Shown here: in pieces, positions 21,730 through 57,677 of the stretch
Numbering within the stretch: the first letter of the stretch is position 1
Layout of the letters: each line of letters starts with the position of its first letter
Source of the DNA: Marsupella aquatica
Lineage: Eukaryota > Plantae > Marchantiophyta
DNA: 64,000 nt
Direction of reading: 5' to 3'
Assembly (NCBI GenBank): GCA_973895155.1
Contig: OZ316892.1
Coordinates: forward strand, 3,847,223 to 3,911,222
Notes under the pieces: model-generated
Seen by the model: only the letters and a program-made list of their open reading frames with translations
Databases searched by the model: none
What the model was told of the DNA's origin: nothing
Made by a program: the position numbers and the translations under genes

Positions 21730-22993
21730 ATGACCAACCTCGAAAAATTAACTTTCCCTGCACTAGAAATAGATGGCGGCAACTACCTAGAATGGTCCAT
21801 GAACCTCAAAGAAAACCTAACCTCGCTAACCCTACTCCCAGCGATAGGGATGGCCCAACCTATACTAGCTGGCGAACCCCAACCAAACCCGTTAACTAAA
21901 GCCAATGAATCGAAGGCCCTAGTATTCCTGAGACGCCACATCCATAGATTCCTACAGAGACAATACATGCACCTTTCGACCCCTCGGGAACTATGGACAG
22001 CCCTACAGACCCGATTCGACCACCAGAAACTGGTCGAACTACCTAAAGCCAGGCAAGACTGGCTAAACCTATGAGTCCAGGACTTTACCTCTATTTCAGT
22101 CTACAATAGCGAACTCTTTAGAATAACCTCAACCCTTGCACTATGTGGCGAGCCAGTTACGGACAAGGATCTGCTAGAGAAGACCTTGTCGACATTTCAT
22201 TCATCGAATGTGTGGCTATCAACACAGTATCGAAACATGAAGTTTGGGCAATACTCCGAGCTCATAGCCCACCTTCTAGTCACAGAGAGAAACCAAGAAC
22301 TCCTTTTAGTTAACTCTAGAAAACGTCCCGCGGGCACACTGCCCTCAAGATCACAGAGTGAAACATATCTTACCGACACCGCTGAACCCTCCACATCAAG
22401 GTAGGGCATTAAGTGCAGTAGGAATGGCAACCATAGAAACAACCCCAACAGGGGGAGTTTCTTTAACCAACGCCCACAACACAATTTCAGACGGTCCTTT
22501 AGTGGACGTGGAGGACGCGGAGGACGTGGAGGACGCGATGGACGCGGCGGACGCGGAGGACGAGGTGGACGCGGCGGTGGTAGAACATATAACAACAACC
22601 GTAGAAATGAATGGTCACAATCCCGACCACAACGAGAACGCCCAAAATGCCATGCATGCGGCATGACCAACCACCTAGCCAGAAACTGTAGAATCCCGCA
22701 ACACCTTAAAGAGCTATACCAACGATCCCTCAGGGACGGACAAACCTCTAGGGCACCACCCCGTGAAACCCACGGGGCGTTTATGGAGTCAAGCGACCCA
22801 TTCCAAGACTTTTCAGACCTACCTGCCCAACCCGAGGCACACTTAGTGGCAAGTAGCTCCACTACACCATATTTAAATAGCCCAAGCACATGTATATCGA
22901 CAGTGCGACCACGCACACTATCCTCAGGGATAGGCACCTTTTCCACAAGATTACACCCTCACGTAGATCCCTGACCACTATAAATGGCCCTAG
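21730..22993 (+). pseudogene. Copia gag and N-terminal half of the aspartic protease
   Basis: Gag with in-frame stops at 22072 and 22402, an RGG repeat (~22500-22580) and CCHC knuckle CHACGMTNHLARNC. Frameshift near 22895 into DSATTHTIL; cut by the CACTA at 22994. Confidence 0.9.
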
Positions 22994-23848
22994 CACTAGA
23001 AGAATCCGAGGTGAACTGAGACCGCAATATATGACTCATTTTGGCTCATGTGACTTCATTGTGACTCAACGTGACTTGACCCACGCTGTGACCCTTGGAG
23101 TTGCAAAAGTTGAGACCAAAAAATGGAAGTCACTATTGATACTGGGCTTTGCAACTTGCTTGATACCCATTTGTGACTGATCTGTGACTTTATTGTGGAG
23201 TCTAGCCTTGTTTCGACGTGACTGCAATATGACTTCAGCGAGTCATATCGTAAGTCACATACATGACTTACCCGCATTCAACAACGACTAGCGTGTGACT
23301 ATTTAGTGTCACAAGAGAGACCAATGGAGACCCTGGCCCGCGTCACACAACAGAACCATTTGGGACTCTATATACTCATGTTTATAACTAATAAGGTTCA
23401 CATGCAAGTTATAACCATGACTAATGAACACAGAGGGACAGTTCATAAGGAGAGAGAGCACTCGACATTACAATACATAGAAACCTGATGTTCTAACTTT
23501 AGAAATATAACACATTGAATACAAGAAATGAACATAGCATGAATGACATCCACATGAAACAAAGCATCATATAAGCAGATCCTACATAAAACATTCATAA
23601 GAATTAAACACAATCACAATCTTGCTAAAAAATGAAGATCATTTGAATTCCAATGGAATAGTTTACAATGTGATCAATGTAATTTAGACAAAACAGGAAC
23701 TCATAATTGATGATTGTAGGATGAGATAACTGAAAGCACATGCATGATACTATGAATCTCCAAGAGGACATGATTCTTGTACTGCTTCTTGACATCTAAA
23801 ATCTACATAACATGACTCACACTACAAACGAATAATGGCATGACATTG

Positions 23849-26800
23849 TTATGGATCCTCTATGAACTTGCTTGGCCATAATACCAAAGAACCTGCAGCA
23901 TCTCCAAGTGTCTTTTGAGGAGGATCATCATTTGTGTTTGGAATGGGAAGGACAGCTTTAGGTTTCACTAGTAATGTGACTAACACTACTGAATAACCTG
24001 GGGGTATCCTCTTGCCATGGAACGTTGTGGAACCAACCTGCACTCTGGCAAATCCTACTCGTGTTCCACTCTCATCAATAGCTAACAAGCCACTTTGTCC
24101 CTCAGCATTAGGTGCTTTCCCCACTTCCACCTTAGATCTTTCTGCCAGCACTGTTCTTGGAGGTTTGTATGAAACCTTTGACGTGGCTCTGCTCCCACCA
24201 GCAGACTTGCTTCGTGTGCGCATGCTTCCTCTCTTCACAGTAGTGAAGCTAGGCTCAGTAGGTTCCTCTGTTAGGACTGTCACAGTAGCAGTTTCATCAC
24301 CTGGGAGTGTCATACCAACTAACTCTTTGGTTGGATTTATCTCAACAAGAGGCACACCTGTCATTGAGAATGATACATTCTGCAAATCATTTATCTCTGC
24401 AATGGAGTCAAGATCTACATAGCATGAATCTGGCTCAATGGTATCATTGTCATGCTTGCTGATATCCTCATTTGCCCCAACATTGATATCATCCACTCCC
24501 TTGCCAATGTCATCCTCATCCAAACATGGTTGACTGCCCTCTGTCAAACAAGTTGCTTGTACAGACTGCAACTTTGTTGCCTCTAAATTACAGCGAGTAT
24601 TTGCCAGGTTCTCATACTTCTTCTCTGTAGCACCTGTCTTATTCTCTATGGACACAACAACCACAATATATGTTACTGAAAATAACACATTCAACAAACA
24701 ATGTCAATTCAAACTATACATTTAATAATCATATCCCACACAGTTGTAAAGGCCTTACCTTCAAGCCTACATGTCGTTGGCATGCCAGAAGAGTGCATCG
24801 ACTTTGCCACCTCAAGTGGTGATGGTGGAACTCCTGCAGAATTGGAATCAATTTTATCTCTCACCGACACAACAGCTTCCATTAATGTCTTGAAGTTCAC
24901 ATGGAACAAGTCAGTCAATGAATTCAAACGTTCATTGATCTCTGGAAGACATGTTTCGACAGCCTTCAAACGACCACTTATCTCTGTAAGTGAAGATCCA
25001 CCTCCCTACATGACACAGGGGTATAGGTTCAATCACTCCATATGAAATGTTGGGCAATATATGCACAATCAATGTTATATACAGTGTACACCTGAAATTC
25101 AACGCAGGTCATTCAATTACCAATCAGAACTCATATAACTTACATGCTTGGAGGATTCAGATGCACCCTCTTGAGCCCGGGTGTTCACAATTTCAGCCCT
25201 CAACTCTTCTTTTGAAGGGCTTTGCCCCAATTGGGCTTTCTGCACATGCATGGCAAACACAAGTTATCGATCAATATTCAGGGAACGTACACTAAAAAAC
25301 AAAGTTTACATGTATGGGTTTACACTAAAAAATAGTACATAGTGTAGCATAAATTACATAGCTAGGCCATTCATTCTTACCAAACGTTTAGCTGTCGGTG
25401 CAGTGCCGGTCCTTCCTGTCAGATTAGGGTTCTGAACACTCAACCTGGCCTCGGTCATCTGTGAACTCTTCTTTTTTGAAGCATCTGTTACAAAATAAGC
25501 TACTAACCTTGCCCACACTTTATCATCACAACTGGCTGGTGGAGGCATATCTGTCTTCTCCCCACCTTCCTTCCAAGCCTTATGCATTCTCCACCTCTCT
25601 TGCTTGATAATTTTACCTGCTGTACTCTCTAGGCAACCTATGTCCACGCCATCATCACTGCCCACATAATTCCATTTGGCAGCAACATTTTCACATACAG
25701 TCTTCCAATCTTTTGGATGCTGTTTTTTAAAATTAATAACACTCACATCTAACCAACGCAATACTTCAGCTTTCAAATCAGCATGCCATCGGTTCTTGCG
25801 AGGACACTCAGCATCCACCCATTGTCTCTCATTCAACTTTACGTCCCCTTTCTTTGTCACCTCCCCTCGTGCACTGCTCTCGGTAGTACTGGGCGTTGTA
25901 TTGGCCACCCCTTCATTCACCCTACCTGGGGTTCTGAAGCCACCTGGGAAAATACAATGCCATTCATGCTTGAGAACTACATATAGCAGAATGGATGACG
26001 GCAACATTCAATGCTTCACTTCAAGAAAAATTCTTCAAACATACATACCTGTAGCTTTGCCTGTAGATGCCTGTGCAGGGACTGCACTCTGAAATTGTTG
26101 CGACCCTGGACCACCTGTCCAGCCTAGTACAGGGGCCGGATGATGTCACTTTCTAGGTATGTGTGTGCAAACATATGTACTGAAAACTAAGTACAAACTG
26201 TAGGAAAACAACTGAACATTCACCGACATACCTGTCCCCCTTCCGTGCTGCATCTGCATAGGGGCATTAGTGAATACTTGAGTCGATGGTTCGACTGTCC
26301 AACCTGCACACATACATTTTCTATCATTATACATGTGCAGAGTCCCCCCCACGTGAATGGACTCCACATATAATGAGTTCTTCCATTGCTGACAAGATCA
26401 GACATTACCTGCTCCTCTTCCAGCGTTTGTAGGTACTGAATTTTGATATCCCTGCCAATTACCTTCACCACCTTCCCAACCTTGTTCATTCCACGACCCA
26501 CCACCATCCTCCCAACCTGGTTCAACCCATGTCTGTCCTTGTGGACATTGGAACTGATCATTACTAGCATTTGCCCAATCAGGTTGGGCAGAATCTGCAT
26601 GCAATGGCAGGTGGACAGAATTTCATGTTGTCTGAATCCAATACATCCCAAACAATGTCAAAAATTGATATGCAGTCTGAAATTCAGGAGTGCCATGCCT
26701 TCACAAAGAACTGGCATATAGATATATACTCACATCCCCATGGTTGAGGTGGACGTCCATACCCACGAGATTGTGGGTTTGGACCTGCTCTGCCTCTACC

Positions 26801-27560
26801 ACGGGCATAACCTAGAGCTTGCCCCCTGCCATAGTATTGGGCACCAGCCTGGGATCTACCACTACTACCACCTCGCCAACCTTGATCAGAGGTCAGCCCC
26901 CCTGCTGGTATGGTGCATGCACAGGCTTCGAAGGCAAAACAGAACTGGCAGGACGTTGCATCACATCACCAACTACAATGTCAGGAACTAAGCAAGGTAC
27001 ATATGTGTAGTACTGAACATATGAAACCTCTAAACAAGAGTTTTTAACTCAAAACCTTGTTGGGAAAACTACTTACATGTTTCTTTTGGGGCTGCTCTGC
27101 AATGTATTCATCTTCATAACCCCCATCCTCATCCATTTCCTCTGGAAAATACTCATCATCTGCATCTTCTTGTCTAGTGTCTGCACCCACCTGTGCAGCA
27201 TCAATGTCATCTCCACATTCTGCCATTGTAGGTACGACCTTCTTGCTCAACCTGTCACTCCGATGCACAGGCCCAGAGATAGTGCTGGTCACCCTTCTTG
27301 CGTACTCCTTTTGTTTCTTTGAAAATGTTGTGGCTCTGCGACATTCCAATATGAGAATACAGTCACAATTTCAGTGCCACATTGAACTATTCATGTCACA
27401 CAAACTCAGCGGAGGGGTGTAGTTGAGAATCGTTCCCTTACAATTTAGCCACATCCTTTTCCAGATCCAGTTCTGCAATTTTGGCTTTCACGTATGCTCG
27501 TTGTTCCATAGCTTTCCTTTCATACTCACACATCTCTGTGTCACTCTGTTCCATCCTACT
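23849..27560 (-). CDS. TnpA-like / Ptta-type second CACTA protein, multi-exon (exon model uncertain)
   Basis: 25354-26007 shows the Ptta/En-Spm-like pattern (QERWRMHKAW..PPASCDDKVWARLVAYF..KKSSQM.EAR..NPNLTGRTG). The C-terminus FHGKRIPPGYSVVLV..LPIP..TLGDAAGSLVLWP resembles the Tnp1/DUF8039-type domain. Several GT-AG exons lie between. Confidence 0.7.
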
Positions 27561-27710
27561 GGACCACAAAAACATGTCATCTATGGTCACCCCGTATAAC
27601 ACAATGCAACCACAATCACCAGGCATCCATCCATACATCTGTGTTGCTTCAGAATTACTTTATTACACATCCTTCCCCTCACTAATGTCCATGCAAAAAA
27701 TTCACATTAC

Positions 27711-30700
27711 TCATGGCACAGGCACACTGTTGGCATCTGCATCTCTGAATTCGCCTCCTTCAGCAAATACATCTACCCTTGTCACAGGAATGAAGTCCCC
27801 GCTATCATGAACTACAGGCACTTGGTCTGAACGCCGACGATCAAAGGCACTATGAGAGTGTAAATGAAACTCAAGGTTTGATCCTTCCATCCGACGTTGC
27901 CTGGCCTGTTTATGACACACTACACGCCAACCTGGGGAGTCTTCCACATCCAGGAAGAAAGCTTGCTCCACCTGACTAGGAAACACAAATGGCTCAGACC
28001 ATTCGGGCAATTTCCCTCTGAAATTGGCCAGCAAGAAACCGTCGTTGTCTCTCTTCATGGTAGCCCTGTTACCAAGCCAATCCTGCCGCACCCATGAACC
28101 TTTCATAAGAATCACAGGACTGGACACCGCCCCATAGTCCAAAGCCCATATGTCAACTAATTCTCCCACATATCCCATCTCCATCCAGGCCCTGTCGTGA
28201 TTGTGGCTCTGTTGCTCAAATACAGTGATGAGCCCGTAGTCATTCGTCACCCTGTAGGCACTGTCACCATCCTTCACTCGGAAGTGATTTCCATATGCTC
28301 TCATCCGTTTGTAAGTCTTCACTTTCAGGCTAGGGGCATTAGACAGTAGGTAAACATCTGCATCCATGTCTGGGTGGGTCTCGTGATGCTCTCTAATTGC
28401 CACTCTGATCCACTCCATGAAACCTGGAAAAGTTGTTCCTGCAGTGGGATGGGCCGCCTTCAATGACTCATACTCCCTGAACGAACAACCACACAGCATT
28501 AGCTTGGGTAAACATGAACAGGCTGAAGGAGAAAACCACACGAACACAACATTTAAGCTCATGAACTGGATTATAGCACATGTATGCACTCACTGTATCC
28601 AGGGTTCCATCACCACAGTGTTGTGCAATACAAAGTCATGTGCCAAGTCTCTCATAGATATGGTCAGGTTCTTTGTGGTTGCAGCCCCTTCCAGTACTTC
28701 ACCTATCACCCCTTCCTCCTCATCAGAATTCCACACCCTGGTCTTCACATGCTCATATTGTGCTATGTATTCGGTCAGAAATCCCAGAGTCTCATCCTTG
28801 ATGTAACCTTTAGCCATGCTTGCTTCAGGTTTGTAATATGTTCTCACGTGACCTTTGAGTAGCTTCATGTACCGTTCCAAAGGGTACAACCAACGAGCAC
28901 TCACAGGCCCAAATTGGTGTAGCTCTTCCACAACATGGACAAGTAGGTGGGTCATGACATCAAAAAATGCGGGAGGAAAATAAATCTCCAGGTCACACAG
29001 CACCTGAGCGACATCTTCTGTCAGTTGTGGGAAGTGTGTTTCATCCCAAACCTTCACACAAATACGACGAAACACATCACTGAGTCGCATGATCACAGTA
29101 CGAACAGGCTTCTGCAACAGGCCCCTCAGGCATAAAGGCAACACATGTTGCATCAACATATGGTAGTCATGGCTTTTCATACTACCAAGCTTTCTAGTCA
29201 TGATATGCTTCTTGAAAGCACTGCCATAGTTTGAAGGAACCTTCAAAGAACTCAACCTCTGCACAAATAGTTCCCACTCTGTGTCTGTCAGAACATAGGG
29301 CGCTTGGTACTTCAAGAGCACATCAGCTCTGTGGGCATGTGGCCTCAACCAAAGATGGGGTTTCATTCCCCTCTGTTCAAGATCCAATCTCACTGAACCA
29401 GTGTCTTTCTCTCCACACAAGAATCTGAGTAGACTCTCACAAATATTCTTTTCAATGTGCATAACATCAATGTTATGTTTGCTTGGCTCAAACTCCTGCA
29501 TCGTTGCAATGCAAAAGCGTCAGGAAATGCCTCAAGTTTAGTCTCTCTCTTCGAAATGAATGCACATGCTCTGAACCAAAACATGTATCCCAATTAGCAT
29601 CAACTCCAAGAGGCTTACCCTCCAGTACTTGAGCTCCAAGTCCAATATGCTCAGTCTTTTTACACCATATCGCTTTATTGGATCACTCACTCCATCTTCC
29701 CTGCCCCCTCGTTTGATATTGTCATCCCTCAGTGCTCCCCACTGCCTGATCTCCTCTTTGGTCACTCGTGCCGGGGGTCCACGTTGCTCAATCTCATTGC
29801 CAAAGTGTGCAATCAGTGCCTGTCTTTCTCTGTAAGGGTGATCTGCCTTCAGAAAATGATGATGGCCCATGTATATCACTTTCTGCAGGGCTCTGGAGTA
29901 CTCACTGGTGACATTGCGCCCACATATAGTACAAGCACAATATCCTTTTGTTGTTTGGCCTGATATCATCCCATGGGCTGGGTAGTCAGCTATAGTCAGA
30001 ATGACAATGGCTCTAAGGATGAATGGGTTTAACCTCCCAAGCCTCTGTAGGACATCATATGTGAGAACTCCTTCCTCCCAAAGCTTTCTCAATTCCTCCA
30101 CTAGGGGAGCCAGAAACACATCTATGTTGGCAGATACAGCACTGTCTGGCCCTGGTATCAGTAGGACCATCAGAACAAAAAATCGCTTTATAGTCATCCA
30201 AGGACGAAGGTTATAATTCAAAATAGTTACAGGCCAGCACGAAAATTTGTTGTTCTTGTCTCCAAATGGGTTTACCCCATCCAATGACAGCCCAAGTCTG
30301 ACATTCCTCGGCTCAGCAGCAAATTCGGGATACATCTCATCTATGAGTTTCCATTGCCTTGAATCTGCAGCATGTCGTTGTAGCCCATCATCACTTTTCT
30401 TGTCAGTTGCCCAAGTCATCATCTCCGAGATGGCACGGCTTCTGAACATCCGCTGAAGTCTGGGAATGAGTGGAAAATGACGAAGTACCTTGGCGGGAAC
30501 CATAGACTTTCCTGAGTTCCGATACCTGTGCTTCATACACTTAGGGCATGTCAACGATTCTTTATACTCCTTTCTGAAAAGAACATGCCCATCAGGACAG
30601 GCATGGATCGAATCATAGTTCAATCCAAGATTAGATATGCATCTTTTTGCCTCGTACATGTTCTTGGGCAAAATATTACCATCTGGTAGCACAGTTGTTC

Positions 30701-31442
30701 GCAAGAATGCCAACAACTCAGAAACCAAAATGTTGGGGACATTGTGGTTGCCGCAAATGTTCAGGAACATGATGACAAATCCCAGTTTAGAACATTTGCT
30801 ACCGGGGTACAAAGACTTCCTGCCTTCCTGTATTTGCAGGGGAGAGCCAAACATCCCATCATGCCCAGGGGTTTCCTGCCCTATCTCAAACTCATCAAGA
30901 GGCTCTTCGACAGGGGGCACACTTGCATCTGCAGCCGTATCCTCTTCATTGTCCAGCCCATCATGAAATGCATCCAAGTCTTGGAAGATGTCTCTCACCA
31001 TCTCTTCCACATGAATTCCTTCGTCACGTGGTGCTGCCTGAGCACCATCCCGTTGGAGAGCTGACAACCCACAGAGACCAGCTACAACATTTTCAAATGC
31101 ACCAGGCAGAACCTCACTTGCCCGTCTTGCAGCATTGGCAGCATCAAATTCTAACCTCCACTCCTCGTCGGAAGAATCTTCCTCTGCAGGATCATTCCAA
31201 ACTCGATGTCGTGGATCTCTTCCATGAACCGCGATATGCCGCCAAACCTCATTCAGACCCCTGGTACGGGATCCTTGGCAGATTGCACAAGGACATCTCA
31301 TCCTATTGGCTCCTGAAAGTCTGGTTCGTAACCTTTCACGCTGCCAAAGCTTATTATCATGGCGTGATATCCTTGTGGGATGATGCAAAGGCAGTGCCTG
31401 TGCCCTGGGCTGGGTCTGGGGAGGGTGGTGACCAGGGTGCAT
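27711..31442 (-). CDS. CACTA TnpD/Tnp2 transposase, apparently intact
   Basis: Exons ~31442-29619, 29495-28594, 28476-27711 join in phase. Motifs MRCPCAIC..H (transposase-associated domain), IHACPDGHVLF, RNVRLGLSLDGVNPF, TIADYPAHGMISG, HNIDVMHIEKN, MKSHDYH, FFDVMTHLLVH, RWLYPLER, EPFVFPSQVEQAFF. Confidence 0.93.
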
Positions 31443-31875
31443 TGTAACAGGCTGGGAGCTCTGCAGTCATGGACAGCAGTGAACAAGGATGCCTAATGGT
31501 GGTATTTGTGTTCCATATATCCCTGACTGTATCTGCCAAAAGAGTTAACATAACGTGTACTAAATTCTCACAAACCCTAAACCACCCCAAAAGAAAAAAA
31601 CAGGTTCGCAAGTAGTGTACCTATTGTCAAGTGAATGACACAAAATTCCTAAATGTTGGAGGGTGTCACCACCTCCTCCGCTGTCCTCAAATGTACCGCC
31701 TCTGCATGTACGTTTACAGTGACACCCCCAGGCAGCAGGAAACAACAATCCGCCAACAGTAAAATAAGCCCTACTGCCACCAACCATAACAAGGTACATT
31801 AGTTCAAAGATCACATTTATTTCAATGATCTGATTTATACAAAAAAACTTGTGTCCAAACTGATGCTACTACTCC

Positions 31876-32748
31876 TCACTCTGATTCAGAATCGCTAATG
31901 ACCCATTCCTCACTTGTTGTCTCATAGTCCTCTCTGTAAGGATCCTGACCCTTCCGTGGCCAGGCCTCAAAAAGATCATAGTCCATTGGGTTTTGACGCT
32001 TCCCAGCTGCTACTGATTCCACAAGCCAAGCATATGAAACCACAAACACATTATGGGACATGACATAAAAGCGAATGTCTCCCTTCCCAAACTTGCGGCA
32101 GGCTTTGGGATATGACTTAGTAATGACATGAGTGGTGTCCTCTGTTATATTCTCCTCCACTGTCCCACCTAGGTCAAGCACTGTGGACTTGTACACTTTG
32201 CACTTAACCTCTCCAATTCCCGCCTCCACAAATACCATGCTCAGCCCTTTCAGAATGGGGGTTGGTTGCTTCGTCTCCTCAGCCAACATACACTTCAGCC
32301 TTGTAGAGCTCTGTCCTTTGTTGAGTACAGGTCCATATTGGAGATCAGCAAGCCGTGCCTTTGCTTCCCAGACTTCTTGTTCAGCCCAAGCTGATGCAGA
32401 AGCTTCTTCATCCTCCCACAACTCATATTGCTCAGTATCCTGTACAATCTTATGTGCTATGGAATCTGTGATCCAAGAGGCCTCAACTACTTTTAGGCCT
32501 TGCTTAGTAATTGCAGAATTCATGTAGGACCATGACCACTTCTTTATCACTGATAGCCATGTCCCTGCAACAACATGTGTAGTCTCTGGAGTGATGTCCT
32601 GAACTACAGTGCCATGGAGCTCAGAGAATCGTTTCTGTACAGTTGGCCAATGCACTTTGGTCAACCCATGCTGGCCATGGACCAAAATCGCTCTGACCCC
32701 TGTAAACACTGCTGGGTGGTCACACTTTCTACGTTTACCAGGCTCCAT
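31876..32748 (-). CDS. Tandem BRCT-domain protein (DNA polymerase lambda-like BRCT), CACTA cargo
   Basis: Uninterrupted 290-aa ORF from ATG 32748 (MEPGKRRK). Two repeats: VFTGVRAILV..LHGTVVQDITPETTHVV..VVEASWITDSI and ILKGLSMVFVEAGI..LGGTVEENITEDTTHVI..KFGK..VSYAWLVESVAAG. These show the BRCT Gly-Gly, THV and WxxxS hallmarks. Confidence 0.82.
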   Translation of the reverse strand: MEPGKRRKCDHPAVFTGVRAILVHGQHGLTKVHWPTVQKRFSELHGTVVQDITPETTHVVAGTWLSVIKKWSWSYMNSAITKQGLKVVEASWITDSIAHKIVQDTEQYELWEDEEASASAWAEQEVWEAKARLADLQYGPVLNKGQSSTRLKCMLAEETKQPTPILKGLSMVFVEAGIGEVKCKVYKSTVLDLGGTVEENITEDTTHVITKSYPKACRKFGKGDIRFYVMSHNVFVVSYAWLVESVAAGKRQNPMDYDLFEAWPRKGQDPYREDYETTSEEWVISDSESE

Positions 32749-33339
32749 GTACACACACTCTACGTGATGACAGTGAATTTGGAAGAATGGGTTCACCTGA
32801 CAATACAAGGACAACAAAATTCCTGCTTTTTGAGTTGATCTGGCCCACTGGTGCTCAAGTCCGATTTTGATAGGTACAAGGGATATGTGAACAATACGTA
32901 CTAGGCACCTGCACGGATGCAGGACATTGTTTGAATATATACTACAAAATCCATATCCGTGGTGAAATGAAGTGCAACCAACTTGTCATGGCACATACAT
33001 ATTTTGTTGTAAAGGAGGATACATTCAATGACAAACTTATAGGGCAATTTGATTAATTGCATGCCTGATAATTTATACGCTTACAACTTAGAAGTCCTGT
33101 TTTAATTTAGCAGTCTGATGAAAGTGTTTATGAAAATGACCACTCAGCCTAAATACTTCCAAGAAGGCTTGTAAGGATAAGTTTGTATAGGCATGTACCC
33201 AGCCACTGACGCCAGAGCACAAGATAAGTGCTGCCTATATAAACTCGCCTACCCAACTCCTTTTCAAAATTGGAATCTCTGCAATCTCAAAAAATAGTAC
33301 ATCCACATCAGGTGCACTGTGCATGTACAATGTTCAGCT

Positions 33340-34020
33340 TCACAGCCAAGATATGTGATCTCTCACAGGAGTGCGCGAGGTAGGATCAATGGCATGGCGA
33401 TGACAATAAAATATCCATCGATCAACACCATGTGCAGAGTGATCATAGATTTCTCTGTCACAAGCATAACCCTCTGCTTGATGATCTTTCAGGCAATGAT
33501 AGTGCCACATAGTGGGACACCTAGCACAGTGGACTATGTCAGTCCAGTAGTCATCATCATGCTCACCACATGCCTTGCACCTATGAAGTGGGCAAGCTGT
33601 GGCATGAGCAGGCAAACACTCAAAACAGAAAAATCTCACACAAAAACGGTCTGGACATTTCCTAACATTTGCTGCAGCATCAACAGAGCCCTCATAGGAC
33701 CCCAACTTCCCACACTGTGCACACTTAGCCTGCTTCTCCAAACAATCAGTGCACATCCAGTCTCCCTGGTGTGTTGACGGGAGGCCCACCCCTGGACAGT
33801 TGTTTTCTGCAGCAAGGTCAGACTCCGGGTTGAGGTGGAAATGCCTCATGCAAGGGCCCTCACAAATGACCAGGCCCCCACCATCGTCACAAATGGCACA
33901 ACAATGAGCTGCCTTCTGGAAAATCTGACTTGCAGAGAAGTTAGTAGCATCTGCCCCAAGTACACCTGTGTTTCTCACCTCTGTCACACGCTTTTTGGCT
34001 TGAATTTTAGGCCGTGCCAT
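33340..34020 (-). CDS. Stand-alone EDM2/NSD-type tandem PHD-finger protein, CACTA cargo
   Basis: Intronless 226-aa ORF: CAICDDGGGLVICEGPCMRHFH..WMCTDC..KCAQCGKLGS..CPLHRCKAC..CARCPTMWHYHCL..IFYCHRHAID..TPVRDHI. Collinear with the PHD cassette of plant EDM2 as recalled (CAICDNGG..CEG.C.RSFH..CPLHKC..TPVRDHV). Confidence 0.85.
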   Translation of the reverse strand: MARPKIQAKKRVTEVRNTGVLGADATNFSASQIFQKAAHCCAICDDGGGLVICEGPCMRHFHLNPESDLAAENNCPGVGLPSTHQGDWMCTDCLEKQAKCAQCGKLGSYEGSVDAAANVRKCPDRFCVRFFCFECLPAHATACPLHRCKACGEHDDDYWTDIVHCARCPTMWHYHCLKDHQAEGYACDREIYDHSAHGVDRWIFYCHRHAIDPTSRTPVRDHISWL

Positions 34021-34031
34021 GCCTGCGCATG

Positions 34032-34175
34032 AGATAGACTCTACAATTTAGCAGACTGTACAGAAAGTAAAATATATTTAGCATTTAAGGTACAAAGGCA
34101 TTTAGATAGACTCTACAATTTAGCAGACTGCACAGAAAGTAAAATATATTTAGCATTTAAGGTACAAAGGCATTT
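34032..34175. repeat. 72-bp tandem duplication just upstream of the PHD ORF
   Basis: AGATAGACTCTACAATTTAGC...AAGGCATTT starts at 34032 and at 34104, with one mismatch. Confidence 0.92.
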
Positions 34176-34790
34176 GCTACTGCAATGAATTGGAATGGCC
34201 ACACAAGGATGCAGAGCACACATACTTTTGGTATGTTGAGCCCACACACAAAACTGATCCCCTAATACAATTTCTCCACCAACACCTCAATTTTAATTGT
34301 GGCTATGATTCACCAAAGGAGATCTGCAACAACATTTCATGCATTTGAATCACATACAATAGTCGTGACATGTAAAACAGGCATTCTTCGAAGAGGATTG
34401 GTATGAAGCAGTGTCATAAGGGTTGAAATTTATACATCCTAAATAGGTTATGATAGTGGCTGAGACAAATAAGTGAGGCATAAATCATTTTGCATATTAT
34501 CACATGGCCCATTAATTCATTCAACGTTGCAATGTTCACCAGGTTAAAGCAGTCATGAAAGCAGTCTTTCAATAGAGACTTTTATGCGAGTTTGCTAGCC
34601 TCTTAAATTAGGATATTTTGCTTAGTGCAGGCATAATAGGATATAAGTTATGTACTGTTGACCCTAAACCCTGGACCCAAAATTGCTCATACATCAAAAT
34701 TTTAAGTAAATATCCTCTGTGTTGAAGTCAGAGTGTTAAGCTATAGGTCAATGGTATCTGGTCTGTGCATGCGGTGTGACAAGTGGTCCT

Positions 34791-35240
34791 CTAGAGCATG
34801 TGATCCAAACATGTGTAGACACCAAAGTCACCGGTGGTGGGGTCTGGGAGGGCAGGACAAGTGACATCACCAGGCACACTGCAGGATGGCGAGTGGTTCC
34901 AGATGATACATTGTGCTCTGTGCAAAAATCGGCATCCAAGAGAACGGTCATCCAATTCTGGGCCAGAAGCCCTACAGGCAGGACAGTCATATTGGCAACT
35001 GTGTACACACCCTTGGCACCTAATTTGTGGCGGGTCATGTACAAGAGACACAAATACCAAGGATGTCGGGAAGGGTACTGAAGCAGGTAGAGGCCGGCTG
35101 TAGTTGTTCCTGGAAACAACAGGGTACTCAAAGTACCATGCAGACTGGGCTGGAAGGATCCCAAGTCTGACATACTCAAGGCGCAACATCTCTGCCTTGC
35201 GTGCAAGTCGCACATGTTCAGCGTTGCGGGTCCTCACCAT
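34791..35240 (-). CDS. Cys/His-rich hypothetical protein (possible zinc finger), CACTA cargo
   Basis: 149-aa ATG-initiated ORF co-oriented with the other CACTA genes; CQGCVHSCQYDCPAC..CRFLHRAQC..C..C..YTCLDH. Family not recognised. Confidence 0.5.
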   Translation of the reverse strand: MVRTRNAEHVRLARKAEMLRLEYVRLGILPAQSAWYFEYPVVSRNNYSRPLPASVPFPTSLVFVSLVHDPPQIRCQGCVHSCQYDCPACRASGPELDDRSLGCRFLHRAQCIIWNHSPSCSVPGDVTCPALPDPTTGDFGVYTCLDHML

Positions 35241-36248
35241 AAGTGTTGCTTTCGTTGTGATGTCCTCTGTTCACGTCCTTTGATGAGCAAGGTGAGCAGG
35301 AGGTCGACTTGCCTCGCCAACAGCAACCACCTAAACTAATCAGTTCCCACTCATTGTCTTGGTTCCAACTACAGGTCATAGTATACACATAGCATGAAAC
35401 GTGCATAGTACATATTTGATTCTGAGTTTATGAGTTTCCTAAGACAAAGAGCTTGGTGATAAACCCATATTCTCGACGGACATGTATATCAATCATATTA
35501 AACTCCTGTTTTTTCATCCAGAAAGACCGAAAGTCTCACCTTGCAGGTTGCAGCAGAGAGAAAATTCACTGGTTGTCGTGTTGTGCAAGTGAACCTCCAC
35601 TGATGCCCCGGTGTAGCCCCTCAGATGCAGGTGACACTTACCAACTCCCAAGTTGCCTGGTCTAACAGAAAATGCTTATATCTTCAGAACTTTATAGAGC
35701 AAGTACATGATCACATACTTCTGGATCTATTCATATTTGGAACTCTTGCCAACTACAACTCCCATTATGCACAAGCTCACATCAACAGAGAAAGATACAG
35801 AATGCATACTTACTATGGCTCTAAGCACCTTCACTACCTTGTTGAACCCAGTCCTGAAGTCTTTTCAGCGTGTTTGTTGTGCTGTCTCCTTTGGCACCCA
35901 ACACCTTAGTCCTTGATGTAACAGAATGCGATTTTACAAGTTAGATGCTTTGGAACCTTCTATGGTCTTAGCTGAATTGATGTCATCGTAAGTGGTGAAA
36001 GACAAGGAAGACGAAAGCTGGTTGAAGAGCTGTGGACAACACACTAGCATGAAGTGCTTCAACCAATCCACTGCCAAACGGAACTCTTACACAGTCACAT
36101 TCTTTTAGTAAACAAAAACTCAGTCAAACTTCAGAATCAAAGTACAGACTCTGAAGGACCAAAGGAGGATGTTGTGAGTTTCTCTGTTGTTTAATGTGTT
36201 ACCCTTCTAGTTTCAAAGTTAGCAAATGCTGAATAATGTGTCTACCAG

Positions 36249-36591
36249 ATCTTCGAAAAGAAGCCCACCACAATTAAGAACTTCGGTATCTGGGTCCACG
36301 TATCAGAGTCGTACAGGTTATCACAACATGTACAAGGAATATTGTGATACCACAAGAAACGGAGCTGCAGAGCAGATGTATGATGAGATGGCTTCTTGTT
36401 ATAGAGTTCGGTTCCCTTGCATCCAGATCATGAAGACTACGACAGTCCCTGTCTCTCTGTGCAAGCGAGAAAGTACCAAGCAGTTCCATGATTCAAAGAT
36501 CAAGTTCCCCTTGACGTACTGCAAGATTCAACCTCCATTGCGAAAGCTAAAGAAGACTTACAAGGCCACCAAGCCCAACACAATTGTTTGA
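36249..36591 (+). pseudogene. RPL18A: Captured last exon of 60S ribosomal protein L18a (eL20)
   Basis: After a CAG acceptor: [15 protein letters not shown](frameshift)[51 protein letters not shown]. Several Arg>Cys changes; a 3'UTR-like tail follows. Confidence 0.92.
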
Positions 36592-38721
36592 GTAGTGCGG
36601 GTGCAGGTTCCCAATTTTGAGACAATTTGGCTCATTTTATGTCCCGAGGGAATCCTGGAGTTTATGTATTGAGTTTCTAGGTGAAGATGCTTAATATAAG
36701 GAAATTCAATTATCACTTCGTTCCCAACTTCTATTAATTGAAAATACACAAGCTGGAAGCAAGAAGACAAGCCACAATCTAGCATCTTAGCCAAACACAA
36801 TCGTCCCGACAAAGCAAAACTCAGCTGGACAGAAGTCACTCGGATCCACAAAAAATTGAAGATTCACCTCCAAGCCGGAGGCTGATCACTTCAGTACAGC
36901 AGCTTCTAGACGGAACAAACTCTGCTCAGCCCCACAGAAACACAAATGTTAAGGCTCCAAGTCAGAGCTCACAAACAGAAACTCAGATAAATAACATTCA
37001 AAATCTGTCCAGGTTTGTGCAAAGTGTACATATTCATTCTTCTGGAATGAACACGCAATGCATACATCACCTAGACACAGTCATTATAAATCATTGGGCG
37101 ATTGGGGACCACTAAGCAGGTGTGTTCCTATTTCGAGGCTACAGGAAAGGATAGAGTGACACCAAACTCAAGAGTACACCAAAAGAAAAACAGCAAGAAC
37201 CAAAGTCAATCATGTGTGGATAAACTGCACATGGGAAGTTCCCCTGAAGAAGCATCAGTTGCTAACATTGTCACCCGAACCACACCTAGTTTATGACCTC
37301 AATGTCTTCAGCCTCAATATCCAATCCTCAGCCCCCTGGTGCTTCCGTGTTTGTTCTGAAAATTTCTGTGATGAAATAATTATTCAATACATTCAATAGG
37401 AGTTCAGACAATCTGAAGAGGACTTTGGACTTGAATGGGGGACAGCGTGGCCATATAGTTATCCTTGTGGCCTTCAGCTACGTGTCTCACGCTGAATTTC
37501 ACTTTCCAGTTTCGAGAGTTGTGAAGGTCTAGTTTTAGTAACTTCCTCCTGACTCGACTTGGGAGCATTCTCTGTATTTGCTAGCTTGTAGTTAGCTTTG
37601 ACTCCTTTCAGCTTAGTTGACGACCCTCCTGAGATATTAACAATTAATATCAAAGGCATTGAAACAAAGCGGGTGGCAGTTTCAGTATCTCAGGCAATGC
37701 AAAATTAATCCATACTTAATCAGCCCTGGCCACACATTCCTTCAAAGCCCCTCATACTAGCAAGCAGGTCTGGCCTGTGAATCTTGTAGTGCTTAACGAT
37801 ACAAAGCCTTCCCAAGTACCAATTCAAAAGTAGCAGAAATAGATCGAAAGCTAGTTCCGATGATAGCTCCCAAAAGCTTTCCTCAGCCCGATTCCTATGC
37901 ACATCAGAGGAGCTCAAACCATTTAGAAATGAGATCACAGATTACTCTTGACAATCTCAAAAATGCCACAACCTAAGCACTGACAGCTCCGTCCCCCCAT
38001 TCTAATTTCTCCGACAAGTTTGCCTTAAAGCACATCCACTCGCAGTTCAAGCAGATTCAGAATCATCATAGACAATAGAGTGTTCTACCATAGCCCACGG
38101 TAGGTCCACGGCCATCGTAACAAACGCTCCACCCCCGGGGCTTATTAGTATTGCTCACTTTTAAGAAGGGCAGTTTTCGCAAAAGCAGTCTAATTGCCTA
38201 GACTGCACTAGAAAAGTTGGAGGCAATATCACAACGGAGCATTCTGCGTCTAAGGGAGAGCGACGCCGTTCAGGAGATAGATGCGCGAGAGAGTGAAGAT
38301 GGTGGGGAGTGGAAGACGGGTTGGGACTGGACCCTTGGTGCCGGTGGGTAATATGTGGGGTTTCAATGAACAATGGGCCAGTTTGAGGAGGATTAAGAAG
38401 CGCGCACCCCACGTTCTTGTGTGGTGGTTGGGTGGGGTTTTGTTTGATAGAAGAAGAAATCACCATTCTCTTATGGAAGAAAGAAAATCGTAGGAAACAG
38501 TGGGCGGGAGAACAAGGCATGTAATAGAGAACAACGAGGCATGTAATAGAGTACTTGCGGTTACTCTAATGGTGCACAAACACTCACCTTTGTCTTCCGC
38601 TTTGTCTGCTGTGGCCAACAAATCCCAGAGCGCTGCCGAGCTTGGTGGTTGCTTGATGGTTGAAAGTGCGTAGCTCACGTCCCTACCTCAATGTCCAACT
38701 CAATGTGGGATGCAACAACTT

Positions 38722-38790
38722 CTCTTGGTCGCATCTCCTCTTGGTCGCATCTCCTCTTGGTTGCATCTCCTCCTTGTCGCAGCTCCTCTT
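38722..38790. repeat. 16-bp tandem repeat, ~4 copies
   Basis: TCTTGGTCGCATCTCC and variants. Confidence 0.75.
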
Positions 38791-41786
38791 GGGGTTCACA
38801 GCTAGCGCGCAGCAGCGCTCGATTGTTGACAATGCGCAGCTGAGCTAGGAGAAGAACTGAATGACTGTGGCTGCTCTTCTCTGCAGTCCAAGCACCCGGC
38901 TGGCAGAATGCTACAACACCTGAAAGAAGCGCACTTTCAGCTGCATGGCCGGGACTAGTAGAAGCCGTTGACGGTGAAGGGCATTCTCGGTTTGGACCTC
39001 CTCTCTCCAACCCCTTCTAACCCGCACCTCCAAAGTTGTTTCGGGAGTTGATTAGCAATAACGTCGCTCCTATGCCAAAGGCACCAAGAACCAAGCCAAA
39101 AGAAAGGGTTTAGCAAAGGGAGAGCGATGTAGTGTGCACTGATCAATGACTCAAAGTTGACGTTGAACCCTCCATTGCGCTAGCTATTGGCGATTGCCAC
39201 ACAGAGAGCAGCCGTATGTAGCAAACTGTAATGCAGATACTCCCGTCAAAGGTCGATGCGTCACACTCAGCTTTAGAGGAAGGATAAACGATTGAGCAGC
39301 ATTGCATTGTGCAAAAATGTTGGAGAAGCACATTGCTTCCAGGCCCGAGCTCACCTCCTTCCCCTTTCACCACTTCGCAGCTCCTCCAAGAGACATTCAC
39401 TCAAGGGCACATCACGCAGTTGCTTGCCCTCCTCAGAAGCTCAACACCACAGCCACCAAAGTTGTCAGCTCCCACTGCAACTGAACAGGTCACTACCAAA
39501 AGCCCGCTCCCACCGCAGCTGAACAAGTGAGCGACACAAGAGTGTAGGACCTCCGCCAAGCCCAGGGCAGCAGCTCAATGAAACTCAATTTGCAACTCGT
39601 CTCACTCTCGCTCTTGCTGCAAAGAAAAAAAAGCGCAGGTCAAACTCCTTTGTGGCCTCAGTCCCCACCGCTTTCCCCAAGCTATGGACAACTACTAGCA
39701 GCTTGCGCTCACAGCATGACATCCAGGTCTTTAGCCAACTGCACACTGGAAACCGAGAGAAGTGAGCGCAGTCACGCAAGGCCAAAAAAGACCAAAGTTG
39801 AGCCAAAGCAAAACTTTACTAATGTATTTACAGTCAAGCATGAGGGCAATCAGGTAAGCAGAAGACCACGCATTCCCGCAAAGAGTTGTAGGTTCTCGTC
39901 ACTTCCTCGCCTCTGTATAGAAGGTCGATCGTTGTATCTCGGGTACCCAATGACAGTGGAGATGAATGCAAATAGGCCTCACCAATCGCCAGTCATCCGC
40001 GATAAACCTCCCGACAACCTTGCTCCTATACACCTTAGCACCCGCATTGTCACCACAAGAAAGACGAATGTAAGATTTAGGGCCCACCTAAACCCTATAG
40101 TGAGATTGCAGTCGACAATGGGTCATATAGCAAAGGTCGAAGCTCCAAGCCCTACGCAATGACATGAAATCCCACCTCCAAAAGCGCTAAATGTATTGAC
40201 TGAGTGCGATCAGGTGCAAGAGTCGAGAGCAACTGAGGAAAAGTGCATTATCGGGCGCAAAGTGTTTGGCCTTGGATTCCCTTGCAGAAACGTGAAGGAA
40301 AACCCTGGTGGTAGCCGTCGACACTTTGTGCAATTTTCCTTTACAAAATCCGTTTACCCTAAACATTGAGTCGACTGGAAGGACTCGTTCATAGGCATTC
40401 TGCAAGCACCTAACACATTTAGACGTAAGTTCACAGTTAGGATTAAACGGTAACTAAGACCAAGGGTGCATGCATTTATTTTTTTGGGGGGGGCTTTTAG
40501 TTGGGTATTTTGGGTATAGTCATTGGGTTAGATAAATATCCTAAGTCACCCAGATGGCAAAAAACAACACCTACCCTTAAACTCACCCTCCTCAAGCATA
40601 AACCCTCTGAAAACCCATTGGACATTTGGAGTCATTGGCAAAATAGGGTTAAATGGATGAAGAATGGACCGGGGGGGATGGATGCCGACGATCCAATGGT
40701 CCCTAAACCCCCATCCCCTTAACATGCAACCCCCGACCCTTGACATCAAACCCCCCCTAAACCCCCTTTAGTGAAAACCCAGCCACCCCCTAGCCTTGAC
40801 ATATAAATTGCCCCGGTTTCTACTAGTGTGTGAAAACTTTCCCGCTCATGAAACAACAAGACTCTCACTTTGCGGGCGCACTCTCTCTTTCTCCAAGTCC
40901 CTCCACAAAAGCTTTTGGCAGTCAAAAGTTTAGGGCAAAAGCTATTGCCAGTTGTATCAACTTGCAATTGCGCAACATGGTTCATTGGAAGAGGGCTTCC
41001 GATAGAGAAATTGATGCAACGGCATTGCATTGTGCACTTAAGGAAAAAGAGGTCCTAAATTGGGCCCTTCAATATTCCCATATGAAGGGGGTTCCATTTG
41101 ATATTGGCTAATTATGGGGTATATATGCAGAGCAAATTTTTAAAATGAGTTAGTGGATGAAGTGAGTTTTAATATGTGTGTGAGCAGTATGTGACAAGTA
41201 CCACTAATTGGTTGTGGTGACTTTTTTAAGGTAACTATGTATGTAGAGTATTAGGGTTTAGGGTGCATCATTATTTTGGGGGGCATGGCACAAATTTTCA
41301 CACCTTTTTGAACTCAGTTGCGGCCGTGTACATGAATGTTAACTTAAATTTGGTTGGTTCTTGTCTAGCTAGAATCACAAATTTGCCCTACTTACCTAAA
41401 CTTCAATTAGGGTAAAAATGTCATGTATACTTTCTTACAGGGGAACAATAAAGAGCAACTCAGTGATGGTTAAAGCAAAGGGAGGTAACTATATATAATT
41501 GCATGACATAATGTGATTAATATGATGGATCCAAAATCATATGTATTGGGCAAGGAAATCATGTAAGTCATGGTCACTTATATAACTTCAATATACTTGC
41601 CTTAACTCAGTTACAGAAGCAACTTTCCCAATAGTTAAATACATGACTTCCCAGAACTTCACCAAAAGTGAGTCAAGAAGATGTAACAAAGATGACACCC
41701 TAAACCTTGGAGTCACTTATTTTCAAAGGTCTCACACAAGTCATGTAAGGTTGGGTCTCAGAATGGCTCGGTTTCTTCTAGTGTAG

Positions 41787-44700
41787 CCAAATAGAAGAAG
41801 GCTTCGGCCCAGCTTCCATTAGACTACCGCAGGGTACAGCGATTCACATAGAATCTGCCATTTTCGCCCCGAACGCAACCCGTAATCTCCTAAGTTTTAG
41901 CGATATACGAGCAAATGGACTACATGTCCAGACGGGTGACACAAGAGACCAGGAAGTGATACACTTGGTTGAAAATACCCCTACGGGGAAAATCATTAAA
42001 GAAACACTTTTCTCGTATCCTTGCGGGTTTTATGTAACACATATTGAATGCCTGCATAACAATGCCCAAACAAGTGAATTGCCCGCGCTTTGGCATGCAC
42101 GCCTCAGCCACCCCGGCCAATCAATGCTAACCAAAATAATTAAGAATTTAAGTGGCATTCCAATCAATACACGCCACATCCCAGCTAGCACCCCATGCAC
42201 TGCATGCTCACGCGGCAAATTAATAACAAGGCCCACGGCATCAAAATTGCCAACCAACATACCCAAATTCTTGGAAATAATCCACGCCGATGTTTGCGGG
42301 CCAATTAACCCACCGAGCGGACGATTCCGCTACTTTATGGTATTAATCGACGCATCAACTAAATGGTCAAATGTGACACTACTTTCAACGAGGAACATGG
42401 TTATACCTCGTATTTTGGCGCAATCCTGCGCGTGAAAGCACAATTCCCCGACCACCCCATTAAGACACTAAGGGTAGACAATGCAGGGGAATTCACATCC
42501 GAAACATTTGATGACTTTTGCACATCACTTGGCATAGACGTACAATATCCTGTACCTCACGTGCATTTTCAGAACGGATTAGCTGAAGCGGTCATTAAAC
42601 GCCTTCAGTTAATTGCACGCCCATTACTAATGCAGTCAAAACTCCCCGTCTCAGCATGGGGACACGCCATATTACAGGCTAATGCATTAATCCAATACCG
42701 CCCATCGGCCTTTAATACCTATAGCCCATACCAAATTGCTAATGGTATTAAACCTGACCTATCACATCTTCGTTCATTTGGATGTCAAGTAATGGTCCCC
42801 ATTACTCCACCCAAACGAACCAAGATGGGACCCCAACGACAGTTGGGGATATACATCGGATTCGACTCTCCGTCCATAATCCGATATATAGAGCCTACAA
42901 CTGGCGATGTTTTTAAATCTAGATTCCTAGATTGCCATTTTGACGAACATGTTTATCCACAGTTAGTAACCCCTGAACACCCACAACCACCTTTGGAGTG
43001 GGAAAGACACTCGCCATTTTGGCAAGACCTTAGAACGAATCAAGGGGAGAAAGAAGTTCAAAGAATTCTGCAACTCCACAAGATTGTGGAAGAACTTCCT
43101 GACGCTTTCGTTGACACATCACAACTTACCCGCTCACATATTCCAGCTGCGAGAGCATCTGCCCGCATCGAATTATCAAATGAGCCAGCAAGTACATCCC
43201 AACCTCGTGCAAAACGAGGTAGACCCTTGGGATCAAAAGATAAACAACCACGAAGGCGTGGTTCATCTATACCACCTTCACCTGATGTCGATCATACCGA
43301 ATCCACAACTCATGAAGAAATTTCTATCCACTACGCACACACCGGTACGATGTGGGATAGAAATACTACTTCCATAGATGATGCTTTTGCATTATATCAC
43401 TGATGATACACCCGAACCAATATCACTGATGATACACCCGAACCAATATCTATCTTAGAATGCCAAAACAGACCAGATTGGCCCGAATGGCAAAAAGCTA
43501 TAAATGGAGAATTAGATTCCCTACTCAGCAGACACACTTTTGGCCCAGTCGAGCCAACACCGCAAGACGTACACCTAATTGGCTACAAGTGGACATTTGT
43601 CCGAAAAAGAAATGATAAAGGCCAAGTTGTACGCTACAAAGCACGTCTGGTAGGGAAAGGATTTACACAACAACCGGAAATTCATTACGATGAAACCTAT
43701 TCACCGGTTATGGATAGCACAACATTCCGATACCTTATCGAATTTGCCATTTTCCATCAATTACAGATGCGACAACTGGATGTCGCAACCGCATATCTAT
43801 ATGGAACTTTAGACACTTGTCTATACATGCGATCACCCCCCGAGTTGGAGCAACATCGCCGAGCTTTGGCTCAAGGCGCCAAATCGCATATTCCATATTT
43901 ACATAAGATTATAACACAATTATCTCAAGTTACACCTCATGTGTCATCTACACATGTAACTCATAATAACGACACTGCTGTGTCAACCGTACGGAATACT
44001 CGCCGCGGACTAGCTATCCGTGTGTTGAAGGCATTATATGGCCTGAAACAAAGTGGCAGAGTATGGTATCAAAGATTTACTGATGAAATGATTGCCATGG
44101 GTTTTTCCCATGATGCCATTACACCATGTTTATTTATTAAACATGTGAATGATGAATATGTCATCGTTTCCATTTATGTTGATGACTTAAATATATTTGG
44201 GACACCCCAATTGACAGAAGATACTATTACTAGTCTTAAATCCACATTTGAGATGAAAGACCTTGGACATACAAACTTTTGCTTAGGCTTACAACTAGAG
44301 ATCCTACCCATTGGCATGATGCTCCATCAGACAACACAAACGGAAAAGATCCTAAAATAGTTCAATATGAACCTAGCACACCCATTGACGTCACCAATGG
44401 TTGTACGTTCATTAGAAAACAACACTGATGTTTTTCGCAAGCGCGAAGAACATGAACCCATATTAGGACCAGAAACTCCATATCTTTCTGCGATAGGAGC
44501 ATTAATGTACCTAGCAAATCACACCAGACCAGACATTGCATTTGCAGTTAACTTACTAGCCAGACATAGTGCAACTCCCACAGCCAGACACTGGAACGGA
44601 GTTAAGCATGTATTTAGATATCTACGTGAAACCACCGATACCGGGTTATTTTACCCATTCGGTGCAAACCATGAGCTCATAGGATACGCGGATGCCGGAT

Positions 44701-57517: not shown

Positions 57518-57677
57518 GATGAGGGCCGCGCGGACGCGAGCCCTCACTGTCACAAATTATGACGTGCATTTTCCCCTTAGGGAAACGCTAGAACTTGTCC
57601 GGTCGTGGTGCAATGAGCGGACTCGATCTAGACCAACCCCCTTGTGGATCAAGGTTAGATCCCGCCCAGGTAAGTAT
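57518..57677 (-). ncRNA. U1: U1 spliceosomal snRNA, divergent variant (copy B)
   Basis: Same AUACUUACCUGG 5' end, SL1 loop, U1A site and Sm site as copy A. SL4 tetraloop is UCCG, with a few SL2/SL3 changes. AGTCAA (3'-box-like) lies just downstream. Confidence 0.93.

Follow-up and report, generated by a model that had tools for sequence, protein, structure and literature searches.

A twin-BRCT gene with candidate kinship to DNA polymerase lambda in a CACTA transposon of Marsupella aquatica

Results

The window, that is, the whole 64,000-nucleotide stretch of DNA that we analyzed (Marsupella aquatica, contig OZ316892.1 of assembly GCA_973895155.1, positions 3,847,223 to 3,911,222 of the forward strand), contains a CACTA/EnSpm transposon lying within a copia retrotransposon. 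Upstream of its transposase gene, the transposon carries an open reading frame (ORF) predicted to encode a small protein with two BRCT repeats, P0001. Both repeats appear to be of the type found in family X DNA polymerases (Pol X) such as DNA polymerase lambda (Pol lambda), and the protein may act at the breaks made by the transposase. The coordinates of the features are collected in Table 1.

The initial annotation of this DNA had described, next to the transposase, a protein with a sequence resembling a nuclear localization signal (KRRK), two BRCT repeats, an acidic tail and no catalytic domain. All of these features were recovered. The transposase gene starts at 31442, 433 bases downstream on the same strand; KRRK occupies residues 5-8; and the repeats, the tail and the lack of a catalytic domain are borne out by the translation, by Pfam and by an AlphaFold2 model. 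Pfam BRCT (PF00533) matched P0001 in two stretches, with E 1.7e-13 and a score of 51 bits (cut-off 21.3). BRCT_2 (PF16589) matched as well, with E 2e-11 and 44.4 bits (cut-off 27.3). The same scan gave no polymerase or other catalytic family: the 8-kDa domain (HHH_8), fingers, palm and thumb are absent, and only 28 residues follow repeat 2.

The AlphaFold2 model was computed from a 34-row alignment (an earlier model from 3 rows, with a mean predicted local distance difference test score (pLDDT) of 35.4, was discarded). It has a mean pLDDT of 85.8 and a predicted template-modelling score of 0.50, and the beta-alpha-beta-beta-alpha-beta-alpha fold occurs in it twice, both copies lying mostly above 90. 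The linker between the repeats is about 50 residues long and consists of a 25-residue helix and a low-confidence or disordered stretch at residues 142-158. Comparison of the model with the PDB by Foldseek gave 183 matches at E<=0.001, and all among the matches listed were entries with BRCT-domain proteins, including complexes of nonhomologous end joining (NHEJ) with ligase IV, as well as Rad4, BRCA1, TopBP1 and Rtt107. TM-scores were only 0.25-0.28 despite the high significance: the likeness is one of single domains and does not extend to the way they are placed relative to each other. The protein atlas assigned P0001 to generic BRCT clusters only, with scores of at most 0.88. Profiles of repeat 2 and repeat 1 matched each other with E 7e-20 (hhalign), and a family-specific motif, Y-[DE]-L-[FW]-E, closes both repeats. 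The two repeats probably arose by internal duplication, which fits both the mutual match and the common end motif.

The element arms form the longest inverted repeat within the 18-42 kb part of the window. At least part of the 2.3-kb stretch spanning the PHD and BRCT ORFs is carried by 11 public runs with 8 organism codes, four of which (4 codes) were compared. Contigs of three of these four (X1, X3 and X5) join 22990 to 41784, skipping 18,793 bases; here other copia copies are represented by their empty site. Taken together, the inverted ends, the flanking TAG, the copia halves and the empty-site joint show that a CACTA element was inserted into the copia element with a 3-base duplication. 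The left subterminal region also holds a 20-base tandem repeat (23032-23077). The motif CACTACAA gave 2 matches where 2.66 were expected, which is uninformative, and the pattern GTGACTYRA was not enriched across the window (4 matches against 2.5 expected).

The transposase is recognized by Transposase_21 (PF02992, E 3.6e-68), DUF4218 (E 4e-28) and DUF4216 (E 1.2e-4), and is colinear with a 1,071-residue transposase of Ipomoea nil over 1045 alignment columns. Its frame contains three in-frame stops, all inside two inserts without counterpart in the Ipomoea homologue. We rejected the reading of these stops as nonsense mutations; since they are confined to the inserts, they are most simply explained by two short predicted introns. 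With its ends, target-site duplication, subterminal repeats and a colinear transposase with predicted introns, this copy of the element looks autonomous and whole.

The PHD ORF lies 591 bases upstream of the twin-BRCT ORF on the same strand. It has five full-length relatives at 37-82% identity and weak PDB matches to the PHD fingers of AIRE and NSD2, and is thus predicted to be a second conserved extra gene of the element. A reading of the two ORFs as exons of one gene was rejected: relatives with identities as low as 37% (217-245 residues) preserve the end of the PHD ORF, and the start methionine of the BRCT ORF is kept in P0002, P0003, P0004 and P0007. Another part of the element, a 1.8-kb piece that contains a fragment of ribosomal protein L18a, is missing from some sister copies, in which contigs of X1 and X3 join 35821 to 37650. 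The piece looks like a later insertion into the lineage of this copy. The skipped part has TA at both its start and its end.

Full-length relatives of P0001 were found by word-index search (P0002, 59% identity; P0003, 54%), and the family alignment A1 matched P0002 with E 1.4e-168. Judged by this match and by full-length relatives at 54-60% identity, the ORF is not a chance reading frame. HMMER, run exhaustively over 1.84 billion representatives with the alignment of these sequences, returned 61 proteins at E<=1e-3, 12 of them at E<=1e-10. The strong matches are 264-321 residues long and share the two-repeat layout (P0006, P0008, P0010, P0013, P0020 and P0071), or are fragments of such proteins, and no longer or fused form occurred among the representatives. 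Identity in the full-length family ranges from 54-60% down to 21-30%, with the start and end of the ORF conserved. The relatives form a rare, small family marked by TH-x-x-A-x-x-W...KWSW in repeat 1, a corresponding segment in repeat 2, the Y-[DE]-L-[FW]-E motif and an acidic Ser/Thr tail, which is of like kind in P0002, P0003, P0005, P0008 and P0071. A single-BRCT relative, P0028, is annotated in a liverwort genome. Scanning metagenome contigs with A1 gave no relative; scanning with P0071 gave only L001, a 1,404-base contig that is a 98% copy of P0071, and the 464 bases downstream of the gene in L001 had no significant match to 121 transposase sequences.

The best relatives of the transposase have 52-68% identity, so the kin of all three genes stand at similar distances (37-82% for PHD, 54-60% for BRCT, 52-68% for the transposase). 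The deep family member P0010 and P0096, a relative of the CACTA transposase (47% identity), each come from a single European Nucleotide Archive contig of exactly 13,432 bases; probably this is one and the same contig, which hints at a transposon setting for the family.

The ORF was further compared in sister copies of the element. Contigs matching it at >=80% likeness numbered 31, 106, 39 and 10 per run, 186 altogether, and were spread over all likeness classes, which indicates that many diverged copies carry the ORF; contig depths were not taken as copy numbers. No inserted or deleted letters were listed in the 911 bases compared over the ORF in contigs of the four runs. By contrast, indels were listed in sister contigs for the flanking non-coding DNA. 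Two low-depth contigs of X1 have internal deletions within the ORF. Synonymous changes made up 16 of the 40 best-supported variant places (83 in all), against an expected share of 23.9% computed for the 18 transitions and 22 transversions concerned (binomial p = 0.017). The sole change that by itself would make a stop is accompanied in its contig by two neighbouring changes, and jointly they encode Asp. One diverged contig lineage carries 28 listed changes in 224 bases, altering 14 of 74 residues, yet has no stop and retains the THVVAGTW and KWSW motifs. The frame is kept in copies up to ~16% diverged. The body of evidence is modest and consists of short contigs. In line with the initial annotation, the ORF is not degenerate in the sister elements represented by contigs of the four runs.

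To place the repeats among BRCT domains, we used profile comparison and a domain tree. Against a 14-row Pol-lambda-like set, hhalign gave E 3.4e-19 for repeat 2 and E 2.4e-17 for repeat 1; most rows of this set owe their label to the tree, in which they group with verified Pol X domains. Second came the group of P0024, P0025, P0039 and P0048, weaker by 7-9 orders of magnitude, with E 5e-12 and E 2.4e-8, respectively. Palm, thumb or fingers domains of Pol X are present in P0034, P0045 and P0063 and in the cluster mates P0073, P0074 and P0076, and two of the verified Pol X clusters are named DNA polymerase lambda by their sources. Distant HMMER matches with a single stretch were mostly N-terminal pieces of Pol lambda. 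Scored with the repeat-2 profile, Pol X BRCTs reached 43.7-57.2 bits, compared with 32.5 for REV1, 27.0 for PARP and at most 25.0 for TopBP1-like domains. Searched as a whole against solved structures, P0001 matched BRCA1 only weakly (E 0.006).

The tree comprised 84 BRCT domains, after exclusion of 14 near-identical cluster mates and short fragments, and of all domains with <15 bits or <70 residues. In a quick tree, all 27 domains of the twin-BRCT family, 4 verified Pol X and 20 Pol-lambda-like domains formed one clade with a support of 91 in the Shimodaira-Hasegawa-like approximate likelihood ratio test (SH-aLRT), leaving out 22 TopBP1-like, 1 REV1 and 2 PARP domains. In a more careful tree, repeat 1 formed one clade (97/91), and of 200 bootstrap trees, 73% kept the other BRCT types together on a single side. 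These comparisons lend moderate, not decisive, support to an assignment of both repeats to the BRCTs of Pol X type. In line with the initial annotation, neither hhalign nor the trees grouped them with another family. Its further claim that repeat 2 closely follows the plant Pol lambda BRCT held in part: by hhalign and the trees Pol lambda is the nearest type, for both repeats, but the affinity is moderate and not close.

According to a published study of Pol lambda, helix alpha1 of its BRCT domain docks through Arg57 and Leu60 in a groove between Ku70 and Ku80, and these two residues are the most important ones for its recruitment and for gap filling (PMC12056208). The same study states that catalytically dead Pol lambda reduces gap filling and radioresistance, except when it carries R57E (PMC12056208), from which it would follow that a binder lacking a polymerase can compete. 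We mapped these residues via a Pomacea Pol lambda fragment, compared with full-length human Pol lambda, and the domain alignment. By this mapping, R57, L60 and F61 align with K182, V185 and Y186 in repeat 2 of P0001, and with K, M and Y in P0002. The Ku-contact positions are thus, as far as the alignment goes, conservatively kept in P0001 and its closest relative, though not across the whole family.

Discussion

The nearest sequence type for both repeats is the N-terminal BRCT domain of family X polymerases, found in Pol lambda and also in Pol mu and TdT. Animal Pol-lambda-like fragments have the helix-alpha1 pattern G-[IV]-G-x-x-[KR]-C-x-[IV]-[FY]-K in common with repeat 2. Whereas Pol lambda combines one BRCT with lyase, fingers, palm and thumb domains, P0001 has two BRCTs and none of these. 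Its alpha2 segment, which reads W...KWSW in repeat 1 and SYPKACRKFGK in repeat 2, is peculiar to the family, and so is its Y-[DE]-L-[FW]-E end motif. It also differs in being transposon-borne and multi-copy.

DNA ligase IV, whose tandem BRCTs are separated by an XRCC4-binding linker, resembles P0001 in having two BRCTs with a long linker between them. Entries of NHEJ complexes rank first or high in Foldseek (9cq3_f, 9.4e-12; 7lsy_X, DNA ligase 4, 2.5e-10; 3ii6_Y, 1.2e-9). With TM-scores of 0.26-0.28 and a root-mean-square deviation (rmsd) of ~18 A to the ligase IV entries, the domains alone match and the arrangement differs; at the sequence level, LIG4 is matched weakly (E 0.015-0.044). The phosphopeptide-reading pairs of the BRCA1/MDC1 class have a short linker and tight head-to-tail packing. 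In P0001 the linker has ~50 residues, and the BRCA1 and Rad4 pairs align with the model at TM-scores of 0.25-0.28 and an rmsd of 16-18 A. The phosphate pocket in the first repeat of such pairs consists of Ser/Thr-Gly and a Lys; at the putative place of the pocket Lys of BRCA1, repeat 1 of P0001 reads THVVAGTW.

The element itself has the hallmarks of maize En/Spm and other plant CACTA elements: CACTA-type ends, a 3-base duplication, subterminal repeats and a TnpD-type transposase. The Transposase_24 ORF downstream of the transposase gene is, by a weak match, a candidate counterpart of TnpA. In contrast to En/Spm, there are two further conserved genes, PHD-finger and twin-BRCT, upstream of the transposase. 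In our full-text literature search, no report of a CACTA element or another DNA transposon with a BRCT gene came up.

The handling of breaks made by cut-and-paste transposons is usually credited wholly to host repair. A coupling of Ku to PiggyMac, a transposase-type nuclease, is known from Paramecium. There, in the same concept, breaks arising during excision of internal eliminated sequences are handed to Ku, Lig4 and a development-specific Pol X (PMC11997757). In Paramecium, the repair factors are host genes, whereas here a Pol-X-type BRCT module without a polymerase would be encoded by the element.

We tentatively propose that, at breaks made by the transposase, the twin-BRCT protein binds Ku where Pol X would bind. 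The protein would enter the nucleus, and its BRCTs would dock on host Ku or the end-joining complex at these double-strand breaks, with K182, V185 and Y186 of repeat 2 sitting in the Ku70/Ku80 groove like the helix-alpha1 residues of Pol lambda. Because P0001 has no polymerase part but keeps equivalents of the groove residues, it would take the place of Pol lambda on Ku. It might do so as an adaptor, drawing factors of end joining to the breaks left by excision or insertion, or as a competitor without a polymerase, changing the repair of these breaks. The initial annotation had likewise suggested an adaptor or decoy that would steer repair, a plausible role. The data accommodate both roles alike, and all steps beyond the assignment to the Pol-X-type BRCT are inferred. 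If this is right, the transposon brings its own handle on end joining, via the module that anchors Pol lambda to Ku, and the twin Pol-X-type BRCT would define a new small protein family.

A broader version of this proposal strikes us as doubtful: an autonomous CACTA lineage of streptophytes would long have carried a duplicated, polymerase-less Ku-docking module of Pol lambda that decides the repair of excision and insertion sites via the Ku groove. One possibility is that gap-filling end joining would be blocked and the donor site restored from the sister chromatid, so that the element gains copies. It would be the first case in eukaryotes of a transposon with its own gene for manipulating end joining.

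Several observations weigh against a role in end joining. Contact with Ku, XRCC4-LIG4 or the transposase, and any effect on repair, are plausible predictions only. As to kinship, P0039, a fragment outside Pol X, scores 46.0 bits with the repeat-2 profile, within the Pol X range. The key split of the careful tree (SH-aLRT 91) has an ultrafast bootstrap value of 22 and admits the extra row P0035. In searches of the PDB, human BRCA1 (36.2 bits) comes out slightly ahead of human Pol lambda (32.7 bits, a full-length match) for the repeat-2 profile, and repeat 1 ranks Rtt107, Rad4 and PARP4 above human Pol lambda (16.9 bits, E 0.046). Among family repeat-2 sequences, the R57 equivalent is basic in 5 of 9 and the L60 equivalent hydrophobic in 4 of 10; the F61 equivalent, aromatic in 9 of 10, is the sole position that is general family-wide. 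Repeat 1 of P0001 carries H33, T36 and V37 at the Ku-contact positions. The synonymous excess, based on the 40 best-supported of 83 places, is modest. Placement inside a transposon has been seen for this element alone among the family members. Finally, L001 has an in-frame TAG (389-391) in the linker between the BRCTs where P0071 has Gln. The gene is broken in two by this stop, and P0015 is the product that is left, with repeat 2 only; a premature stop of this kind is typical of multi-copy families in which some members have decayed, a hint of transposons.

The gene could also serve the transposon by means other than end joining, either in chromatin together with the PHD gene (as a reader of histone marks, for instance, or by acting against silencing or on the choice of targets) or as a cofactor of the transposase or of the TnpA-like protein. 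Plant transposons do carry anti-silencing factors, such as VANC of VANDAL elements. The proximity and shared strand of the conserved NSD-like PHD ORF, the similar distances of the PHD and BRCT kin, the use of BRCTs as general protein-binding modules and the patchy preservation of the Ku-contact positions all speak for this account. We nevertheless consider it rather unlikely: both repeats have their closest kin among the BRCTs of Pol X, which are known to partner with Ku, the BRCT protein itself showed no feature of a chromatin reader, and the linkage of PHD and BRCT has been seen within this element family only.

Alternatively, a host (or retro-copied) twin-BRCT gene may have been captured by the CACTA lineage and have no part in transposition, its intactness reflecting either the youth of the copies or a continuing host job. 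CACTA elements pick up host sequence, and this copy contains the ribosomal protein L18a fragment; members of the twin-BRCT family also occur on other contigs, and the single-BRCT P0028 in a liverwort genome. The L18a piece, however, is a separate insertion outside the core that sister copies lack. Preservation of the frame in diverged copies with synonymous changes in excess, the lack of a longer or fused form, the close spacing and shared orientation with the transposase and the probable location of P0010 on one contig with the transposase P0096 likewise argue against a passenger, which seems distinctly unlikely to us. Were the gene a mere passenger, the finding would shrink to the annotation of an intact 18.8-kb element. 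That the ORF is an unexpressed relic, open only through a recent family expansion, is very improbable: the two X1 contigs with internal deletions and the premature stop in L001 fit such decay, but relatives at 21-60% identity keep the full length and both domains, and diverged sister contigs have no listed indel and no stop.

Other features of the window

Table 1. Features of the window (positions in nucleotides from its first letter)
Feature	Position	Strand	Remarks
Twin-BRCT ORF P0001	31876-32748	minus	290 residues + stop; starts MEPGKRRK; frame uninterrupted (translation)
BRCT repeat 1	32413-32721 (~residues 10-112)	minus	AlphaFold2 secondary structure, family alignments, weak Pfam stretches
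Inter-repeat helix	32335-32409 (residues 114-138)	minus	Conserved E-x-A-T...E...W; block-mean pLDDT 76-95 over 111-140
BRCT repeat 2	31963-32265 (~residues 162-262)	minus	Best Pfam stretch 162-245; Pol-lambda-like
Acidic Ser/Thr-rich tail	31879-31947 (residues 268-290)	minus	D/E in 9 and S/T in 6 of the last 23 residues
Whole CACTA/EnSpm element	22994-41783	genes on minus	18,790 bases; inverted ends, TAG duplication, empty-site joint
Left terminal inverted repeat	22994-23023	plus	Starts CACTAGAAG; 30 nt, 80% complementary to 41754-41783
Right terminal inverted repeat	41754-41783	plus	Ends CTTCTAGTG
Target-site duplication TAG, 3 bases	left 22991-22993, right 41784-41786		Read directly
TGTGACT-type subterminal short repeats	23049-23308	plus	Family D1 6 copies, D2 3 copies; crowd the left end
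TnpD-type transposase gene	27711-31442	minus	Transposase_21, DUF4218 and DUF4216 in one frame
PHD ORF	33340-34020	minus	226 residues; three NSD-like PHD fingers, Pfam matches below cut-offs
Transposase_24 (TnpA-like) ORF, weak	25354-26007	minus	E 1.6e-4, below cut-off; downstream of transposase
Ribosomal protein L18a piece, 1.8 kb	35822-37649		Ribosomal_L18A E 7e-17 at 36223-36588, plus strand
Copia retrotransposon	21691-22974 and 41782-45200	plus	Ty1/copia; first part gag, zinc knuckle; second part integrase, RVT_2 (E 3.4e-46)
Helitron coding region	12893-18084	plus	Helitron_like_N E 1.1e-54, PIF1 E 2.7e-72, Pif1 2B domain; adjoining frames
AAA_11/DUF6469 helicase gene copies	2372-5504, 51047-53813, 61305-63504		Repeated copies
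U1 small nuclear RNA (snRNA) genes, full-length, two	8614-8771, 57519-57677	minus	113.9 and 110.5 bits

Outside the CACTA and copia elements, each U1 gene lies within a few kb of a copy of the helicase gene, which suggests that the two belong to a segmental repeat. The window has the character of eukaryotic, plant-type DNA. For a host helicase ORF, the commonest phylum in the protein-atlas clusters was Streptophyta (score 0.97). The region 10000-12000 has 67% G+C, strong strand skews and internal repeats, and contains long open frames rich in Pro, Arg and Gly on both strands.

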